The notes under the pieces are model-generated. The model had not been told where the DNA came from and did not search any database. It was given only the letters and a program-made list of their open reading frames with translations. A DNA stretch of 64,000 nucleotides from Minisyncoccia bacterium. GTDB lineage: Bacteria > Patescibacteriota > Minisyncoccia > Phycocordibacterales > UBA6065. Both the position numbers and the translations under genes were made by a program. Location: NCBI GenBank assembly GCA_044233485.1, contig JBIIJY010000002.1, positions 8,047-72,046 of the forward strand, in the 5' to 3' direction. Positions 2,609-12,557 of the stretch are shown piece after piece; position 1 is the first letter of the stretch; the number at the start of each line of letters is the position of its first letter.

Positions 2609-3187
2609 TTATGGATTAGCATAACAGCCAGACTCAGACCACATATAAGCATCATTGTTATTTGAGAATCCGCTAGCTTGGGTAAGCCCTGCTCCGTCTA
2701 CTTCAGAAACTCCTCCGCTACTTCCCACACAAAGAAAACGATTGGCACCGGCTTGTTGCGATCTTCCGGGAAGATAGAATATACTTGAGTATACAGTGTC
2801 AGGATTAGAGCCAGCCCAGGCGATACTTGTATTCCCTAACCACGCGCATGTATTACTTGGGCAGGTACCGATAGTAGCAATATATGATTGACAGAGCCTT
2901 ACCATCTCACTAGCATAATTACCACTAAATCCCCCACTCGAGCACCCGCCACTAGTACCAAACCAGCCAGAGACGTCACCGTTGCCTTTAAGTTGTGTGT
3001 AACTTCCAGTATCAGCAAACTGTTGTGCGTAGAGCGTCCGTATCTGTGTTGCGATCTGCCGGACTGCTGCATCACGAGCACGCAGACGTGAAGAGTTGAG
3101 TGAAGCAAGAATGACACTCGAGAGCATACCAATGATCGCAATTACGACGAGGAGTTCAATGAGAGTAAATGCTCTGAGAGGCTTCAT
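2609..3187 (-). CDS. type IV pilin-like protein, paralogue 3
   Basis: MKPLRAFTLIELLVVIAIIGMLSSVILASL. Start placed at the internal ATG (3187) that gives a short leader before G|FTLIE. The longer ORF to 3289 would run into tRNA-flanking hairpins. Confidence 0.7.
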   Translation of the reverse strand: MKPLRAFTLIELLVVIAIIGMLSSVILASLNSSRLRARDAAVRQIATQIRTLYAQQFADTGSYTQLKGNGDVSGWFGTSGGCSSGGFSGNYASEMVRLCQSYIATIGTCPSNTCAWLGNTSIAWAGSNPDTVYSSIFYLPGRSQQAGANRFLCVGSSGGVSEVDGAGLTQASGFSNNNDAYMWSESGCYANP

Positions 3188-3297
3188 GTAAAATAAGTAT
3201 ATCTCAGTTTGAATATGTATTTTACGCACGCATGTGAACAAGGCAATGTTCCGGCTTTCAATTCCGGACGTATGCAAAGTCATTTGCATACTTCATG

Positions 3298-3603
3298 AGC
3301 CAATGACCAGAATTGAACTGGTGACCTTTCCCTTCGCTTCTACCTCAACTTCAAAGAAAATTAAACCTACTTATACTTGAGGGCTAGACTGTATCTTATA
3401 CCGCATCTTAATACGTGGTGTGGTACCCCTTGTCAGTCGTTCGGGCCCGGGTGCAATGCACTTTAGGACCACGGTCTTGTCCGGCAGGCCTGTGTGGTCG
3501 TCGGATGTTAACCGTAATTCGGGTTATCCAATCGGATTACTCCGAGAGGAGGCAACAATGAACTGTCACCATGGGAATGCTCTACCAACTGAGCTACATT
3601 GGC
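3298..3603 (-). tRNA. tRNA-Thr(GGU) interrupted by a 233-nt group-I-like intron in the anticodon loop (exons 3568-3603 and 3298-3334)
   Basis: 5' exon GCCAATGTAGCTCAGTTGGTAGAGCATTCCCATGGT, 3' exon AAGGGAAAGGTCACCAGTTCAATTCTGGTCATTGGCT. Spliced together they give a canonical 73-nt cloverleaf with anticodon loop AU-GGU-AA and T-loop TTCAATT. The 5' exon ends in U and the intron ends in G. The intron has an R-like element (GACTGACA), an S-like element (AAGATACAGTCT) and a P7-type pairing GACTG/CAGTC. Confidence 0.6.
3335..3567 (-). ncRNA. putative group I intron (self-splicing) within tRNA-Thr(GGU); no ORF inside
   Basis: See the tRNA feature above. Omega-G at the 3' end, U at the 5' splice site, R/S-like core elements. 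Confidence 0.5.
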
Positions 3604-3684
3604 TTATTAAAACTACAAAGATCTTCTTTCACTCTCAGGAAAGACTAATACTACTGTATTCTCCGCTTTTTTCAATCCACACCC

Positions 3685-6600
3685 TTACCTCCCCCTCCCC
3701 ATCACCCCCCTCGTCACCGGGCCAAAGAAGCCAAGAGCGGGAGTAATGTTGTTGGCTTTCTGGTAGCGGATGAGAGCAGCACGGGTAGCAGGGCCAAAGT
3801 AGAAGGTTTCGTTGCCAGGAGAGCCAAAGCCTGTCGTAGAGACAGTGAAGCCTTGTGAGTTCAAGAAGCGTTGGAGGAGCTGTACATCAGTACCGTATGA
3901 AGAGACGGTGAGACTACGGGTGAAGGTAGTGGGTGTAATGGGTGGTGGGAGGATGTTGGTGGTCGATGAGAGGCGTAGGAGTGTGGTGGTACCTCGGGGG
4001 GTGTTGACGACCACAGGAGCAGAGCGGCCGCCACCTCCTCCGCCGGAGCGAGAGATGGTGGTGACTACGGGAGCCGGGACAACAGTGAGAGTGAATTCTT
4101 GAGTATGGTAGAAGACTTGAGCCGCTGAGAGTGTATCAGTGATTTTGATACTGAAGGTAGAGGTGGTAGCGGTGGTTGGAGTACCACTGATGATGCCGGT
4201 GCTGGTGTTGAGAGAGAGGCCGTCGGGGAGGGTGCCAGAGGTGAGTTCATACGTAACAGTTCCCTGCTCTCCCTTAGGAGTGAGGAGGGTGAAATATGAA
4301 GTGCCGACCGTAGCCTGTGAGATGGTCGGTGAAGAGAAGGAGATCAGCTGGAAGAGGAGGAGGCGCCTTGGCGCTTGATCTGCGTAGTAGAGGATTCTAT
4401 CAGAATTATTAAACTCCATCGAGTAACCGTACTGAATGGCACTTTGCGTGACGGAATTCGTGTCGGTTATTGAAGTAAAATTAGTACTGTTAAGTATCGC
4501 CACCGCCCCTTCGTTATTTGCAATATCTGCCGTGTCATAAATTTTGACTCGGGCGACGTTGGACGCTTGTGCGTCCATGACATAGAGAAGTTTATTTTGA
4601 GAATCAAATGTAAGCGCATTTGGGCCAGTGAAGCCGGACTGTGTTGTCTCACTTACCTGTGCAGTGAAATTTACTTGCCCGAGTACATACGAAGCATCCA
4701 TACCGTTCGTAATACCACTGGAGAGATCGAAGACAAGAATGCGGTTGAACTGACCATCAGCTACAAACAAGAGTGAACGACCTTCATCAATAGCAATATC
4801 ACTAATAAAAGTACTTGATGCCGTTGGTGATGCCGGCTCTGTATCTGTCGTAAAATCCGGCTGCCCGAGCACATACGAAGCATCCATACCGTTGGTGATA
4901 CCACTGGAGAGATCGAAGACAAGAATGCGGTAATTTGACGGGTCATTTACAAAAAGTCGCTTATGAAGAGAGTCATATTCAATCCCATCGCCGTTGTAAC
5001 CAGCAAACTGATTTTCAGAAAGACCAGGAGAAAGAGTGGTGAAGTTTGTCGAACCAAGTACGTATGAAGCATTCATATTATCTACAACTCCATTTGAAAC
5101 ATCGAACACCAAGACGCGCCCGAAGTAATCGAGTACGAATAGTCGCTGCTCTTCATCATCATAAGTGATAGATTTTGAACCCAAACCAAATCTATTTGCT
5201 GTTGTAGTGGCGTTACATTCACGCTCAATGGAATCACAGCCAATTACCGCCTCTGGAGTGGTATCTACCGGACGACCACTGGCAGTGAGATTATACACTC
5301 GGACTTCACCGTTACCTCCCACAAAAAGTCTGTTGCGTGTCTCATCGACAGCAATCGCTATAGGAATAAGTCTATTGAATACCGGCTGATCATACACCTG
5401 ACTCTTAGAAAAGTTTTGATTTCCCTGCGAGTCCGTCTGGCCGAGTACTCTATATGCACTCATACCGTTTTCGATAGTTCCCGGACTCACATTAAAGACC
5501 AAAACTCGAGCGCGATCACTATCTGCCACAAACAGGTCGAGCTCACCGTTACCTCTGACATTAATCTGTAAATCTCCTGCAGAACCTACGTTATTTCCAG
5601 AGACAGATGGGTCATAGTCAGACCCTGTATAGTATGCGGAAGTAAAGTTGGGACCACCCAACACATACGTCGCATCCATACCATTGGTAATCCCCCCCGA
5701 GAGGTCGAAGATGAGGATGCGACCAAATTCAAAAACATACAGTCTGTTTTGATGAACGGTAATCGAACTAGGCGCATTAACAAAACTAGAGCCGGTCATT
5801 CCTGTAACTCCCGACTCGAAATCCGGTTGCCCGAGTACATACGACGGATCCATGCCATTCGTGATTCCACCCGAGAGATCGAAGACAAGGATACGGTAGG
5901 AATATGCATCAAGTACAAAAAGTCTCTCGCTCACCTCATCGTAAAAAACATCATTTACATCAATCGTAGAACTCGCCGTCAAACTGTCTCCAAGATTTGT
6001 TTCCAAATCTGGCTGCCCGAGTGCATACGAAGCATCCATATTGTCCATAATCCCAGCACTCATATCAAAAATAAGCACTCGATTTAAGGTTTGATCTGTC
6101 ACAAATAATCGCTCAGTTGTCGTACTGTAGTGAATTTTTCCTACTGCAGCGAAGTTGTTTGCAAGTGGTGATAATGGTGAATCCCCTGTCTCAAAATCTG
6201 GCTGCCCGAGCACATACGACGCGTCCATACCATTGGTAATTCCCCCCGAGAGGTCGAAGACGAGAATGCGATTCCAAAGGTAGTCTGCAACATAGAGGAG
6301 TTGATTCACCGAGTCAATTTCGATTCCACTTGCTGCGAACTCACGGGCATTTGCGTCAACTGGACTATTGTTAGTCACAAAATCTGGTTGCCCCAGAACA
6401 TAGTCTGCAACATTATCAATAAGTTCATTATCAGTCGTAAGATTGTAGACCAAGATACGTGTCTCACCATCGAGAACATAGAGCTTGTGATGCACTGGAT
6501 CCAGAGTAATTGAAAAAGGCCACTGGAAACCGTTGGCGCTCGCATCGATATTCCCGCCGTATGAAGTAGTAAAGCTCGGATTACCACTTACATCAAACGT

Positions 6601-6801: not shown

Positions 6802-8322
6802 TTACTTGGTCATCAAATCTTTGTTCTTTTGATACCACTGGAATACATTCACCCCTGCAAGAATTATTACCACAAGGAGAAGCCAGAGCCATGCGGGCAC
6901 TCGAGAGAGGTCGATCGAGAGTGCAGCCGCGCCGGCAAGATTTCGATTGCCACTTCGAGCAACAGGATTCGTCCCGTCACCGTCGAGCACTGCGAGTGAA
7001 CAGTTTCGTACAATGGATTGTGTACCTGAAGTAACAGTTACAAACATATCTTTAGTACCACCTTCATTGTATGAGGTCGTGATCTGTGAAGTCGAACCAT
7101 TGACCCCGTCAGTTCCTGTCCAAGCGTATGAGTACTTGCCTGTTCCACCAGTCGGCTGAACAGTCCAGTTCACTTCCTGACCGATCTCTGCCTGATTTAC
7201 ACCAGGAACACAGACCGCATCAAGCTTTCCTGTTGCAGCGGCTGTAGCGACTGTCCGTGTCACTGTCGGAGCAACATAGGTTGTCACTGGAGCGACATAT
7301 GTCTGAGCTGGTCGTGAGGCTACTGTCACTGAAGGACAGTTCACACGACTCGTACGATACTGATTTCGAACAGTAAGGACGATATCTTTCGTACCAGCAG
7401 AACTGAAACTTGTCGTAAAACGACTTCCTCGACCATTGGTATCTGCCCCTGCCCAATAATATTCAAGGTCACCACCAGCATAGTCTGTGTATGCCGTAAA
7501 CTCTACCGTCGCACCTGTGAGTACGTATCGTGGAGACACCTCACATCGTGCGGTGCCGAAATTGTATCGGTCTCGAGAGTTGTTGTATGAATAGTCGTAA
7601 TAATTGTCGTTATAATAATCAGTCTCACGAACAGTTACACTGCCACAGTTAAGATAACTTGAGTAGCCATTAGTATCGTAGAGTGTTACATATGCATATT
7701 TCGTACCTGAGAAGTCATAGGTAATATCCATTCGTGATGAATCACCGTACAAACCCTCTGAACCAGACCAGGCATATGAATAAGAACCAGTCCCTCCATT
7801 TGGGTACACTCGCCAACGCACTGTCTGACCACGGTCGACAACTGAGCGGTCTGGTGAACAAGTACCATTTACATTTGACCCAGGGAAATTATTCCCACGG
7901 TTATTTGAGGCGTTTGTCGGGAGCCCACAACGAAGCTCGAGAATTCCACTATTAAATTGCTTTGCGGGGATTGAAGTCCAGCCACTATTTGTCCAACTAA
8001 TAATAAAGTTGTCACTTGGAGAATCAAAACTAATAGGAGTATAGCCAAGTGATACTGCCTGAGGATGTGAAGCACGACACACTGCCTGAGCAGTTGCCTC
8101 GTTTGCCTGATAGCGAGCAGCGTATGCGTTCAACACTCCTTCACCGTTTGTATTCGTGAAGACACAGTACTGCGTTGATCCGAGGAGACGGATCTCAGCG
8201 CCGGTAGGACATCCATACACTCGAGGTGGATTGTAATCTGCCGCTTGAGCACTTGTCGCGCCAAACGTAAGAGCAACTGCGGTGAGTCCGAGTGCATACA
8301 AAGCTGTTTTTAGCGTTTTCAT
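6802..8322 (-). CDS. secreted PKD-repeat protein with C-terminal transmembrane anchor
   Basis: Signal peptide MKTLKTALYALGLTAVALTFGATSAQA (start at 8322). Three PKD-like modules (YSYAWSGSEG / YYWAGADTNG / YSYAWTGTDG ... NCxSVTV). C-terminal WLWLLLVVIILAGVNVF helix followed by KNKDLMTK. Confidence 0.65.
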   Translation of the reverse strand: MKTLKTALYALGLTAVALTFGATSAQAADYNPPRVYGCPTGAEIRLLGSTQYCVFTNTNGEGVLNAYAARYQANEATAQAVCRASHPQAVSLGYTPISFDSPSDNFIISWTNSGWTSIPAKQFNSGILELRCGLPTNASNNRGNNFPGSNVNGTCSPDRSVVDRGQTVRWRVYPNGGTGSYSYAWSGSEGLYGDSSRMDITYDFSGTKYAYVTLYDTNGYSSYLNCGSVTVRETDYYNDNYYDYSYNNSRDRYNFGTARCEVSPRYVLTGATVEFTAYTDYAGGDLEYYWAGADTNGRGSRFTTSFSSAGTKDIVLTVRNQYRTSRVNCPSVTVASRPAQTYVAPVTTYVAPTVTRTVATAAATGKLDAVCVPGVNQAEIGQEVNWTVQPTGGTGKYSYAWTGTDGVNGSTSQITTSYNEGGTKDMFVTVTSGTQSIVRNCSLAVLDGDGTNPVARSGNRNLAGAAALSIDLSRVPAWLWLLLVVIILAGVNVFQWYQKNKDLMTK

Positions 8323-10535: not shown

Positions 10536-10810
10536 AATATGAGCACTCGTGGAATTTATTCCTCGACACGACCTAGCCCCACGCTAGGTCTTTTACTTTA
10601 CGTAGCTACTCCTCTGCGCTAGTATAGTGAGTATAGAGATTGTCATGGCTACCACCCATGATTTGTATCCACAAAGCCTCGTGCCTAATCTATACTCAAG
10701 AGACGCTTGAGCATACTCAAGCTAAAAGCCCGGTGGAACCGCGCCTGAGCGCCCGAGCATGTACACGACATTTGTCGCGTATACGCTTGGGTGCTTTTTA
10801 TTTATTAATT
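10536..10810 (+). promoter_or_regulatory. T-box riboswitch leader (Thr-specific) controlling thrS by transcription attenuation
   Basis: Conserved T-box sequence AGCCCGGTGGAACCGCG (10727-10743; consensus AGGGUGGNACCGCG). Immediately downstream, a 10-bp terminator GCGCCCGAGC...GCTTGGGTGC plus T5 (10749-10799) can form the alternative antiterminator. ACCA specifier candidate at 10651-10654. Confidence 0.65.
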
Positions 10811-10817
10811 TACTTCA

Positions 10818-12557
10818 ATGAATCACGAACAATTACCACTTATACGACACTCACTTGCTCACCTTCTCGCCAGTGCTGTACTCGCTCTCTACCCTGAGAC
10901 AAAAGTAACGATCGGCCCAGCGATCGACAATGGCTTTTATTATGACTTCGATTTTGTCACACCACCAAGCGAAAAAGACTTGGGGAAAATCGAGCAAAAG
11001 ATGCGAGAGATCGGAAAGAAGTGGGACAGATTCACCGCTCGTGAAGTCAGTGCTGAGGAAGCTCGAGCTCACTTTGCTGGTAACCAGTATAAACTTGAAC
11101 TTATTGAAGAAATCATCGCCAAAGGTGAAAAAATCACTCTCTACACATCGGGTGATTTTACTGATCTCTGCCGTGGAGGACATGTCGAGTCAATGAAAGC
11201 CGTTGATTTTTCTGGCTTTAAACTCTCACGAATCGCTGGTGCGTACTGGCGCGGCGACGAGAAAAACAAAATGCTCACGCGAATTTATGGTCTCGCTTTC
11301 TTAAGTAAGGCGGACTTGGAAGCATATGAACTCATGCTCGTAGAAGCAAAGAAACGTGATCATAAAGTATTAGGCCCAGCTCTTGATTTGTTCACTTTCT
11401 CAGACCTCGTAGGCACTGGACTCCCTCTTTGGACTCCTCGAGGTACTATCGTGAGAAACCTCCTCGACCAGTACGTATGGTTACTACGGTCACGTTATGA
11501 CTATGAGCGTGTGGAGATACCCCATATCACCAAAAAAGACCTCTACATGACGAGTGGTCATTGGGATAAATACCAAGACGACCTCTTCAAAATAAAAACT
11601 CGTGAGGGACACGAATTCGTCATGAAACCAATGAATTGTCCTCACCACACACAGATCTATGCACGTAAGCAATGGAGTTATAAAGAACTTCCACAACGTT
11701 ACGCCAATACAACCACTTGTTATCGTGATGAGCAGTCGGGAGAGCTCTCAGGACTCTCGCGAGTTCGAGCATTCGCTCAAGATGACGCTCATGTCTTCTG
11801 CCGAATGCAGGACGTTAAAGCCGAGTTTATGAAAGTTTGGGATATTATTCATGAGTTCTATCCGAAATTCGGATTGAATCTACAAGTTCGCTTCTCTCGC
11901 CGCGACCCACAGACACCAGAAAAGTATCTTGGTAGTGCCGAGCGGTGGGATATCGCTGAAAATTTCCTAAAAGAAATCTTGAGTGAGAAACAAGCAGTTG
12001 CAATTGACGGCCCTGGCGAAGCAGCGTTTTACGGGCCGAAGCTCGACTTCATGGCCAAAGATTCTCTTGGCAGAGAGTGGCAGGTGGCAACCATCCAGCT
12101 CGATTTGAACATGCCAGAACGATTTAATCTCGAGTGTGTGAATGAAAAGGGTGAGAAAGAACGTATCGTTATGATACATGCGGCAATTATGGGATCGATT
12201 GAGCGCTTCCTTTCAATCATCATTGAACATTTCGGCGGTAACTTCCCTCTCTGGCTCGCTCCGGTACAGGTAAAGATTATTCCTATACGAGAGAATCACG
12301 CTGAAGCAGCACGCACAGTAGCTGACGCTCTCGAAAAAGCAGGACTACGTGTAGATCTCGATTGTAGTGATACAGGATTTGGTAAAAAAGTACGGGAAGC
12401 AAAAGATATGAAGGTGCCATACACCATCATCATTGGCGACAAAGATATTGAGGCAGGGAAAGTCACTCTTGAGAGTCGTGATGCTGGGCAGATTGGTCAA
12501 CTCAGCGTAGACGAAGTACTCGAACGAATTACCCAAGAAATACAAAAGCGTTCATAA
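10818..12557 (+). CDS. thrS: threonyl-tRNA synthetase (lacks the N-terminal TGS domain)
   Basis: HSLAHLLASAV second-additional-domain HxxxH motif. Class II core motifs. C-terminal anticodon-binding domain. Confidence 0.9.
   Translation: MNHEQLPLIRHSLAHLLASAVLALYPETKVTIGPAIDNGFYYDFDFVTPPSEKDLGKIEQKMREIGKKWDRFTAREVSAEEARAHFAGNQYKLELIEEIIAKGEKITLYTSGDFTDLCRGGHVESMKAVDFSGFKLSRIAGAYWRGDEKNKMLTRIYGLAFLSKADLEAYELMLVEAKKRDHKVLGPALDLFTFSDLVGTGLPLWTPRGTIVRNLLDQYVWLLRSRYDYERVEIPHITKKDLYMTSGHWDKYQDDLFKIKTREGHEFVMKPMNCPHHTQIYARKQWSYKELPQRYANTTTCYRDEQSGELSGLSRVRAFAQDDAHVFCRMQDVKAEFMKVWDIIHEFYPKFGLNLQVRFSRRDPQTPEKYLGSAERWDIAENFLKEILSEKQAVAIDGPGEAAFYGPKLDFMAKDSLGREWQVATIQLDLNMPERFNLECVNEKGEKERIVMIHAAIMGSIERFLSIIIEHFGGNFPLWLAPVQVKIIPIRENHAEAARTVADALEKAGLRVDLDCSDTGFGKKVREAKDMKVPYTIIIGDKDIEAGKVTLESRDAGQIGQLSVDEVLERITQEIQKRS

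Follow-up and report, generated by a model that had tools for sequence, protein, structure and literature searches.

A compact group I-type intron in the tRNA-Thr(GGU) gene of a Paceibacterota bacterium

The split tRNA gene and its intron

Here we describe a tRNA-Thr(GGU) gene that is interrupted by an intron of group I type, located on the minus strand (3603-3298) of a 64-kb stretch of contig JBIIJY010000002.1 that was analysed at its full length and is called the window throughout. The host belongs to the Patescibacteria, or Candidate Phyla Radiation (CPR), as its nearest GyrB relatives, at about 80% identity, are labelled Candidatus Paceibacterota or Taylorbacteria. The 5′ exon (3568..3603; 36 nt; GCCAAUGUAGCUCAGUUGGUAGAGCAUUCCCAUGGU, with the 3′ end CCCAUGGU) holds tRNA positions 1-36: the 5′ strand of the acceptor stem, the D-arm, the 5′ strand of the anticodon stem (UUCCC), A32, U33, and the anticodon G34 G35 U36. 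The group I-type intron (3335..3567; 233 nt; GACAGUUCAUUG...GGUAGAAGCG) begins with GACAG and ends with GAAGCG, its last base, G3335, being the omega-G. The 3′ exon (3298..3334; 37 nt; AAGGGAAAGGUCACCAGUUCAAUUCUGGUCAUUGGCU, AAGGGAA...CAUUGGCU) supplies positions 37-73: A37 A38, the 3′ strand of the anticodon stem (GGGAA), the variable loop AGGUC, the T-arm, the 3′ strand of the acceptor stem, and the discriminator U73, while CCA is not encoded. When the two exons are joined into 73 nt, ARAGORN reports tRNA-Thr(ggt) with a full and perfect cloverleaf. An earlier reading made from the sequence letters alone (the original prediction) had given the same coordinates, the same lengths of 36, 233 and 37 nt, and the same identity with a split after position 36, all of which are exact. 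It had also pointed to a likeness with the neighbouring tRNA-Thr(CGU) gene (2352-2425), and the two do have in common the acceptor stem GCCAAnG, an identical D-arm, and U73.

Arithmetically, three placements of the break are possible, yielding the anticodons GCG, GGG or GGU. A break at 36/37 is the sole placement that leaves a U before the 5′ splice site (U36 at 3568, the -1 U) and a G at the end of the intron (G3335), as had been predicted, and it is also the sole placement that yields one anticodon across all members of the intron family described below.

The intron can be laid out in paired regions (P), loops (L), and joining segments (J), all on the minus strand. In the P1 hairpin (3551..3570), G34 G35 U36 and the intron bases G1 A2 C3 (3570-3565) pair with the guide GUUGCC (3556-3551), which places a U-G wobble, U3568 with G3553, at the splice site. 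The P2 hairpin (3527..3550) has ten positions, eight of them paired in the window, and is capped by the GNRA tetraloop L2, here GUAA (3540-3537). The 5′ strand of P3, CCC (3521..3523), is a pseudoknot strand that pairs with GGG at 3429-3427. The P4-P5 domain (3471..3515) consists of P4, ACGGUU (3515-3510)/GACCGU (3476-3471), and P5, UCCG (3505-3502)/CGGA (3483-3480), surrounded by J3/4 GAAUU, J4/5 AACA, and J5/4 CAA, with a window-specific extension in the P5 loop. P6 (3444..3470) pairs GGUCC (3470-3466) with GGGCC (3448-3444) and carries an inserted hairpin, GUGC-AUU-GCAC. It is followed by the R element (3427..3443), made up of J6/7 CGAAC, the P7 5′ strand GACUG (3438-3434), ACAA, and the P3 3′ strand GGG. 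P8 (3398..3426) is of the plain-helix type, GUACC (3426-3422)/GGUAU (3402-3398), and leads into the S element (3383..3397), which comprises J8/7 AAGAUA (3397-3392), the P7 3′ strand CAGUC (3391-3387), UA, and the P9.0 5′ strand GC (3384-3383). The P9 hairpin (3343..3382), CCUCAA (3382-3377)/UUGAGG (3348-3343), has a window-specific AU-rich extension, and the P9.0 3′ strand GC (3337-3336) together with the omega-G makes up the 3′ splice site (3335..3337).

The R-like GACUGACA at 3438-3431 and the S-like AAGAUACAGUCU at 3397-3386, both picked out in the original prediction, do form P7 (GACUG/CAGUC) as proposed there. The helices follow one another in the order P3-P4-P5-P6-P7-P3′-P8-P7′-P9 with a P3/P7 pseudoknot, which is the topology of a group I intron, on a conserved core of about 190 positions. 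Because the spacer from P7 to P3′ is ACAA only, there is no room for P7.1/P7.2, the helices of subgroups IA1/IA2. P10 amounts to two pairs at most in the window (A37-U and A38-U) and is weaker still in most relatives. In thermodynamic terms the proposed nested structure, with P3 not counted, folds at -89.5 kcal/mol, compared with -90.5 kcal/mol for the minimum free energy structure. An early hand-fold with GACCAC/GUGGUC as P6, UCGGA/UCCGA as P4, and CCUCU/AGGGG as P3 without P2 was dropped because the alignment of relatives fixed P4 as ACGGUU/GACCGU, P6 as GGUCC/GGGCC, and P3 as CCC/GGG.

A family of introns at one site in tRNA-Thr(GGU)

At the two closest gyrB loci (L001 and L002) the sole tRNA-Thr gene is an intact tRNA-Thr(UGU); a GGU gene is missing there in either form, split or intact, as is any sequence similar to the intron. 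Since these two closest syntenic loci lack the gene, 185,579 species-representative genomes were scanned for a pattern composed of a Thr-type D-arm, seven free bases, U33-GGU, and a position 37 other than A, a pattern that carries no information on the intron itself. The scan returned at least 120 loci, overwhelmingly from Patescibacteria, and an exon-pairing script searched downstream of each for matching anticodon-stem, T-arm, and acceptor strands. Among the matches listed, 94 loci appeared to be split genes (two of them later recognised as artefacts) with 93 distinct inserts, and about 90 of the matches listed restore a perfect cloverleaf across an insert of 176-266 nt. At the listed genuine loci the insert always follows U36 and the 3′ exon always starts with AA, while the 3′ end of the insert is a G in 92 of the 94 listed loci; a split-gene pattern of this kind in the listed loci is far beyond chance. 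A family covariance model, R1, added eight further members that are cut by contig ends. The intron thus occupies the same tRNA-Thr(GGU) site in at least about 100 species-level genomes, nearly all of them Patescibacteria, and the copy in the window, about 66% identical to its nearest relative in the set, is among the longest.

The secondary structure was examined in a MAFFT alignment of 85 pre-tRNAs, onto which it was projected before the pairs were counted; P3 was entered as a pseudoknot, and the tRNA stems were given a bracket type of their own. Standard pairs are formed in 95.2% of the cells, compared with 34-43% when the partners are slid by one to three columns; 50 of the 74 pairs show changes on both sides (20-36 with partners slid), and the covariation score is 0.49 (0.07-0.10 with partners slid). 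None of 500 shuffles reached any of the observed pairing measures. Compensatory pairs were counted at 3/6 positions in P1, 10/10 in P2, 3/3 in P3, 4/5 in P5, 4/5 in P6, 5/5 in P8, 2/2 in P9.0, and 6/6 in P9. RNAalifold, run on 60 relatives with both the window and the proposed structure excluded, returned the same P1, P2, and P4-P9.

Each helix keeps its pairing in its own way. Across the family, P1 sets the exon bases GGU and the first three intron bases against NNNGCC, with U36 opposite G; counted along the helix in the 85 sequences, the pairs are GC in 85/85, GC in 85/85, UG in 84/85, then GU 59/UA 14/GC 10, and finally GC 53/AU 24. P3 is paired in 99.2% of cases with UA variants at each of its three pairs, and its compensatory variants run from CCC/GGG to CUC/GAG, CCU/AGG, and UCC/GGA. 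P9.0, two base pairs immediately before the omega-G, is paired in 97.1% (GC 60/AU 21 and CG 53/UA 24), and P6 shows a compensatory change from GGC/GCC to CCC/GGG in locus L102. P4 is invariant save for a U-G/C-G exchange at one pair. Between the variable hairpins lie the invariant blocks CUGCC, AAUCCCGAAUWACGGUUAA, CAAGACCGUGGC, GCCCGAACGACUGACAAGGG, AAGAUACAGUCUAG, and GAGGUGUAAGCG; within the R element the block CCCGAACGACUGACAAGGG is invariant across the family, and AAGAUACAGUCUAG in the S element is nearly so. L2 is a GNRA loop in almost all members. Its identity goes together with that of P8: an asymmetric P8 motif resembling the 11-nt receptor (GCUAAG...UAUGC) accompanies an L2 of GAAA or other NAAA in 34 of 37 introns and a GYRA L2, the GUAA of the window included, in 0 of 48, an association with a Fisher p of about 1e-20 when uncorrected for phylogeny. 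This pattern suggests that the GNRA-capped P2 probably docks on P8.

The exons covary as well. The anticodon stem, whose two strands flank the intron, covaries at 5/5 pairs and is 99.8% paired, while the acceptor stem covaries at 4/7 pairs and the T stem at 4/5. In about 90 species, among the listed loci, the two exons therefore evolve as one tRNA, which requires that the insert be removed precisely and rules out a decayed pseudogene.

The relationship with canonical group I introns was traced through the Rfam model Intron_gpI (RF00028), whose consensus was taken from the cmscan alignment of a canonical intron elsewhere in locus L118. Set against this consensus, the Thr family has AAUAACGGUUAA for AAUUGCGGgAAA in the P element, CAAGACCGUGGC for uAAuCCGCAGCC in Q, CGAACGACUGACA for UCAaAGACUAAAc in R, and AAGAUACAGUCUA for AAGAUAUAGUCuA in S, where a U-to-C change in S is compensated by an A-to-G change in R. 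In structure the two differ mainly in P3, which is 3 bp long in the Thr family and 7 bp long in RF00028. Model R1, which takes its sequences from the 60 relatives, leaving out the window, and its structure from RNAalifold, matches the intron of the window over its full length with 119.9 bits (E=6e-39), and this is its single match in the 64 kb; no second copy of the ribozyme core was found in the window, where one-mismatch matches to the S element occur at chance level. R1 also matches, again over the full length, the tRNA-Tyr introns of L017, L063, and L102 (40, 35, and 32 bits) and, with 17 bits, a tRNA-Asp intron. The tRNA-Tyr intron of L102, at 31.8 bits with R1, reaches 61.7 bits with Rfam Intron_gpI, above the gathering score of 50, and tRNA-Asp introns score 38.5-50 bits with the same Rfam model. 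On the strength of these cross-matches to an Rfam-positive Tyr intron, the sequence models place the Thr family as homologous to bona fide group I introns, yet too divergent for RF00028. The U-G wobble at the 5′ splice site, the omega-G with its P9.0, the core topology, and the P, Q, R, and S elements including J8/7 and P7 are all present. The group I-like reading put forward originally is accordingly upheld by the P1-P9 fold, the covariation, and the R1 score.

Several loci encountered in the scan deserve description in their own right. The inserts initially taken for introns at L006 (2505 nt), L024 (104 nt), and L058 (149 nt) are artefacts of the exon-pairing script: where the script had placed the 3′ exon, Rfam in each case finds an intact tRNA, which makes the 5′ match a piece of a gene lying next to a complete one, and no group II intron was matched at these three loci. 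The isolated tRNA-Thr(GGU)-like 5′ halves (L006:2763-2799, minus; L024:147-211, plus; L058:489-525, minus) lie 0.1-2.5 kb from the intact tRNA in Solirubrobacteraceae, Halioglobus, and Clostridia genomes, and are fragments rather than introns, possibly scars of integrative elements. At L045 (5197-5450, minus), on contig10 (300 kb) of Niastella populi CCTCC AB 208238, a 181-nt member of the family splits a tRNA-Thr(GGU) gene that directly adjoins an open reading frame (ORF) for a tyrosine integrase (4264-5331), a TraG/VirD4-like ORF of 462 aa, and a serine recombinase. The genome is labelled as a cultured Bacteroidota isolate, and the contig may be a contaminant; the surroundings suggest that the intron travels with an integrative element and that splicing could be tested in a culturable system. 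Further members occur in metagenome-assembled genomes with labels outside the CPR, namely L059, L075, and L057 (Gammaproteobacteria) and L080 (Bdellovibrionales), which could reflect mis-binning or a real spread beyond Patescibacteria. The 8-kb CPR locus L118 holds three intron-split tRNA genes (1892-2231, minus; 5485-5800, plus; 7653-7953, plus), of which one has a group I intron that Rfam detects (57.3 bits), another is a tRNA-Asp gene, and the third is the tRNA-Thr gene; split tRNAs in other loci are of Tyr (L017, L063, L102), Asp (L097, L116), Met (L055, L085), and Leu (L039) type. Locus L009 has tandem intron-split copies of tRNA-Thr(GGU) on the plus strand (5186-5439, and 5445 to the contig end) with acceptor stems GCCAAUG and GCCACCA; the contig ends within the second copy, of which R1 matches the first 33 positions.

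Removal of the intron, the thrS leader, and neighbouring features

Taken together, the locus is very probably a tRNA-Thr(GGU) gene that is functional in its Paceibacterota (CPR) host and is split between U36 and A37 by a compact ribozyme of group I type. The gene anatomy, the membership in the family, the covariation-based secondary structure, and the homology to Rfam-positive group I introns are established; self-splicing, its chemistry, and the contact between L2 and P8 are what we infer from the sequences. Splicing would follow the standard two-step group I pathway. In P1, the anticodon bases G34 G35 U36 would pair with the internal guide 5′-GCC, with U36 in a wobble with G, and an exogenous guanosine bound in P7 would attack after U36. 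The omega-G (3335), placed by the two base pairs of P9.0, would then take over the guanosine site, and the freed 3′-OH of U36 would attack after it, ligating U36 to A37 and producing the mature loop A-U-G-G-U-A-A. Because P10 is limited to two base pairs (A37-U and A38-U), the exons are probably aligned by the anticodon stem of the tRNA itself, a role that the anticodon stem has in the Anabaena pre-tRNA intron according to Zaug et al. 1993, as cited in PMC13011429.

A number of observations weigh against this interpretation. P3 is very short, and P4 and P7 essentially never vary, so these two helices are backed by conservation and not by covariation; the z-score of the single-sequence fold of the window intron is only -1.37. 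Intron_gpI was matched neither at the gathering score across the window nor at E<=10 on 3100-3800, and at the gathering score it was unmatched in 18 of 18 relatives of the intron, the best match of any Thr-family member to RF00028 being 26.9 bits (gathering score 50) with wrong boundaries. In the searchable literature we found no splicing experiment on an intron of the Thr type, and the search for tRNA genes, which bears on whether a second intact tRNA-Thr(GGU) exists, covered the 64-kb window and not the rest of the genome. The original prediction had expected an Rfam Intron_gpI match, which did not materialise, and had regarded the lack of any group I covariance-model hit as a refutation. 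That test is invalid here: missing RF00028 is a published property of the class, and R1 links the family to Rfam-positive Tyr introns. We do not take the miss as a refutation because both the family evidence and the literature expose a blind spot of the model.

Quite unlikely, on the evidence above, is a group I-derived intron that is not autocatalytic, whose removal needs a protein cofactor, a chaperone, or special conditions, so that maturation of tRNA-Thr(GGU) would be conditional or regulated. The 3-bp P3, a J6/7-P7 region divergent enough to escape RF00028, and the missing splicing assay for the Thr class would all fit such an arrangement, and regulatory roles for the retained CPR introns are the subject of speculation by the authors of PMC13011429. 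However, the elements of the catalytic core are all invariant across about 90 species among the listed loci, the covariation of L2 with P8 points to an RNA that folds by itself, and the intron has neither an ORF nor a conserved neighbouring gene. In addition, the related Asn and Asp introns of Patescibacteria self-splice in vitro (PMC13011429).

It is highly unlikely that the locus is a dead tRNA gene with an inert insertion, its ACC/ACU codons being read by another tRNA-Thr. What speaks for it is the behaviour of the default tools: ARAGORN without its intron option (-i) and the Rfam tRNA model give nothing complete at the locus, and default ARAGORN and Rfam together called three other tRNAs only in the window, tRNA-Thr(CGU) among them, leaving the split gene uncalled; that the tRNA search was confined to the window points the same way. 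Against it, the cloverleaf formed by the two exons stays perfect in about 90 species among the listed loci, compensatory changes link the exons across the insert (anticodon stem 5/5 pairs, acceptor 4/7), and the insert itself is under strong structural selection, whereas an inert insertion would decay.

Barely credible is the reading that ARAGORN itself offers in intron mode. In a 700-nt sub-region this mode did find the split gene, with the same insert length of 233 nt, as Arg(gcg) broken at 34/35, and when run on all 64 kb of the window it left the gene unreported, so the expectation that intron-aware calling would recover a threonine gene was disappointed. Taken literally, the output means an intron at 34/35 and a tRNA-Arg(GCG) product, and 43 relatives receive the same call. 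Yet the identities that ARAGORN -i assigns to the homologous listed loci (Arg gcg 43, Thr ggt 23, His gtg 15, Pro ggg 7), with anticodons such as GCG, GUG, GGG, and GAG, vary with the last bases of the intron; the base before the 5′ splice site would be G and not U; and the P1 guide GCC pairs with GGU. A20 is an identity rule of bacterial tRNA-Arg. The tRNA body here has U20, and it matches tRNA-Thr(CGU) in the acceptor stem, D-arm, and U73. Table 1 of PMC13011429 records this miscall too.

Finally, an intron of the bulge-helix-bulge (BHB; archaeal/eukaryal) type or of group II, removed by different machinery, is scarcely conceivable: protein-spliced tRNA introns do also sit next to the anticodon, but the 190-nt conserved core has group I topology and the P, Q, R, and S elements. 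Its P1 and the point after its P9.0 hold the splice sites, whereas BHB introns are cut in 3-nt bulges on either side of a 4-bp helix, are typically short, and have no conserved catalytic core; BHB introns are unreported in bacteria (PMC13011429), and the sole group II match (13.3 bits) is on the other strand outside the intron, which at 233 nt is far too short.

The tRNA has a possible partner elsewhere in the window. The original prediction had named this tRNA as the likely ligand of a thrS T-box, and the leader (10560-10817, plus strand) of thrS (10818-12557, plus strand) is T-box-like and below the Rfam threshold. It contains the motif AGAGAUUG at about 10636, a hairpin CAUGG-CUACCAC-CCAUG at about 10645-10663 whose 7-nt loop CUACCAC holds ACC followed by A, and the T-box core GGUGGAACCGCG at about 10733-10744, followed by a terminator-like hairpin with a U-run. 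The orthologous leaders of L001 and L002 conserve all four of these features. ACC could pair with the anticodon GGU, and UGGA with U73-CCA. The proposal agrees with the motifs, the terminator, and the conserved loop ACC of the leader, but is not backed by Rfam: RF00230 scores 14.4 bits against a gathering score of 93, on the 3′ third of the model only, and is unmatched in the two orthologous leaders (2/2). A specifier in a terminal hairpin loop would make an atypical Stem I. From these sequence features, the leader as a T-box for tRNA-Thr(GGU) is plausible but unproven.

A bolder proposal, and a doubtful one, is that the family is a distinct, ancient, and minimal subclass, marked by its 3-bp P3, its own J6/7-P7 signature, and interchangeable L2-P8 modules, which has been inherited across most CPR lineages and persists because splicing controls the supply of the tRNA sensed by the thrS T-box-like leader through its ACC specifier. 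Intron and leader would together form a regulatory circuit made of RNA alone, in genomes with few protein regulators, and, if this were true, the integrase-adjacent copy in the cultured Niastella would make the circuit experimentally accessible.

A promoter-like site, TTGAAA-16-TAGTAT (3648..3675, minus), which precedes the 5′ end of the tRNA by about 45 nt, is a weak candidate by consensus match only, and three such sites were found in the region against 0.9 expected, which is weak evidence. A 108-aa ORF (3420-3746, plus) runs antisense through the intron and the 5′ exon, and because it is antisense to a conserved structured RNA and a tRNA exon, it is almost certainly spurious. Three paralogous ORFs of type IV pilin-like character, each with an N-terminal GFTLIELLVVI motif (186-725, 1669-2313, and 2609-3289, all minus), are interleaved with prfB and both tRNA-Thr genes. 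In the third of these ORFs the longest annotated start, at 3289, overlaps a hairpin situated directly downstream of the tRNA, and therefore its true start is probably the internal MKPLRAFTLIELL.

A known class and its relatives

The original prediction had known of no Thr example among bacterial tRNA introns, a view that is outdated because the literature describes a matching tRNA-Thr(GGU) class. Castelle 2018 (Nat Rev Microbiol), as summarised in 10.1101/2025.07.03.662931, described 'divergent group I' introns that occur in CPR tRNA-Thr(GGT) only and splice directly after the anticodon. Nakagawa 2026 (mSystems, PMC13011429, Table 1) listed tRNA-Thr(GGU) introns at 36/37 in 3 of 95 complete Patescibacteria genomes, 'not detected using RF00028.cm' and called by ARAGORN in two of three cases as Arg(GCG) at 34/35. 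The tree of that study groups the Thr introns, on a long branch, with the other tRNA introns of Patescibacteria, which are of IA type, and in vitro splicing was shown only for Asn and Asp introns, both of which self-splice. The tFind model gpI_bact_tRNA (Williams 2020, 10.1101/2020.01.27.920355) detects the CPR tRNA-Thr class. The kind of intron found in the window is thus already known, having been described in CPR bacteria since 2018, and its interest is therefore modest.

What is added here is limited, and consists of a much larger membership (at least about 100 species, compared with the 15 introns and 3/95 genomes reported, so the class is far commoner than published), a covariation-backed structure with its 3-bp P3, P9.0, and L2-P8 swap, and the model bridge to the Tyr introns. 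That structure could seed a proper covariance model for the Thr class. The split gene also matters for annotation: tRNAscan-SE, default ARAGORN, and Rfam pipelines miss or misname it, and a genome then seems either to be without tRNA-Thr(GGU) or to have a spurious tRNA-Arg(GCG), which skews completeness scores and codon-reading inferences for CPR bacteria. No new question is opened by this intron; the literature has already asked why CPR bacteria, with their reduced genomes, retain ribozyme introns in essential tRNAs that are present as single copies.

Compared with the published CPR tRNA-Thr(GGU) class, the intron in the window shares the phylum, the tRNA, the anticodon, the insertion point, the G end, and the size and structure of a group I intron, and both the RF00028 miss and the ARAGORN miscall as Arg(GCG) at 34/35 are reproduced. 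Nothing is different in kind; with 233 nt against the usual 176-215, the copy in the window is long because of extensions in P5, P6, and P9. The Patescibacteria introns in tRNA-Tyr, tRNA-Asp, and tRNA-Asn (35/36; subgroup IA, PMC13011429) resemble the Thr family in host phylum, in their site in the anticodon loop, in being mostly without a homing endonuclease ORF, and in the P4 sequence AACGGU/ACCGU. Unlike it, they have a canonical core (GUAGAGACUAGA, AAGAUAUAGUCC), a P3 of 6-7 bp, and Rfam scores of 38-62 bits, and they are inserted one position earlier.

The insertion point at 36/37 is shared with the IC3 introns of Azoarcus tRNA-Ile(CAU) and of Agrobacterium and cyanobacterial tRNA-Arg(CCU) (Reinhold-Hurek and Shub 1992, as cited in PMC13011429). 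These IC3 introns are also like the Thr introns in using the anticodon as the exon side of P1, in their 3-nt guide, in a length of about 200 nt, and in a GNRA-capped P2. The Azoarcus intron has a contact between L2 and P8, and a GAAA loop together with an 11-nt-receptor-like P8 is seen in a third of the Thr family. The IC3 introns differ in lying in other tRNAs and another phylum, and the P3 of the Thr introns is much shorter; in the published classification, the tRNA introns of Patescibacteria stand outside group IC (PMC13011429).

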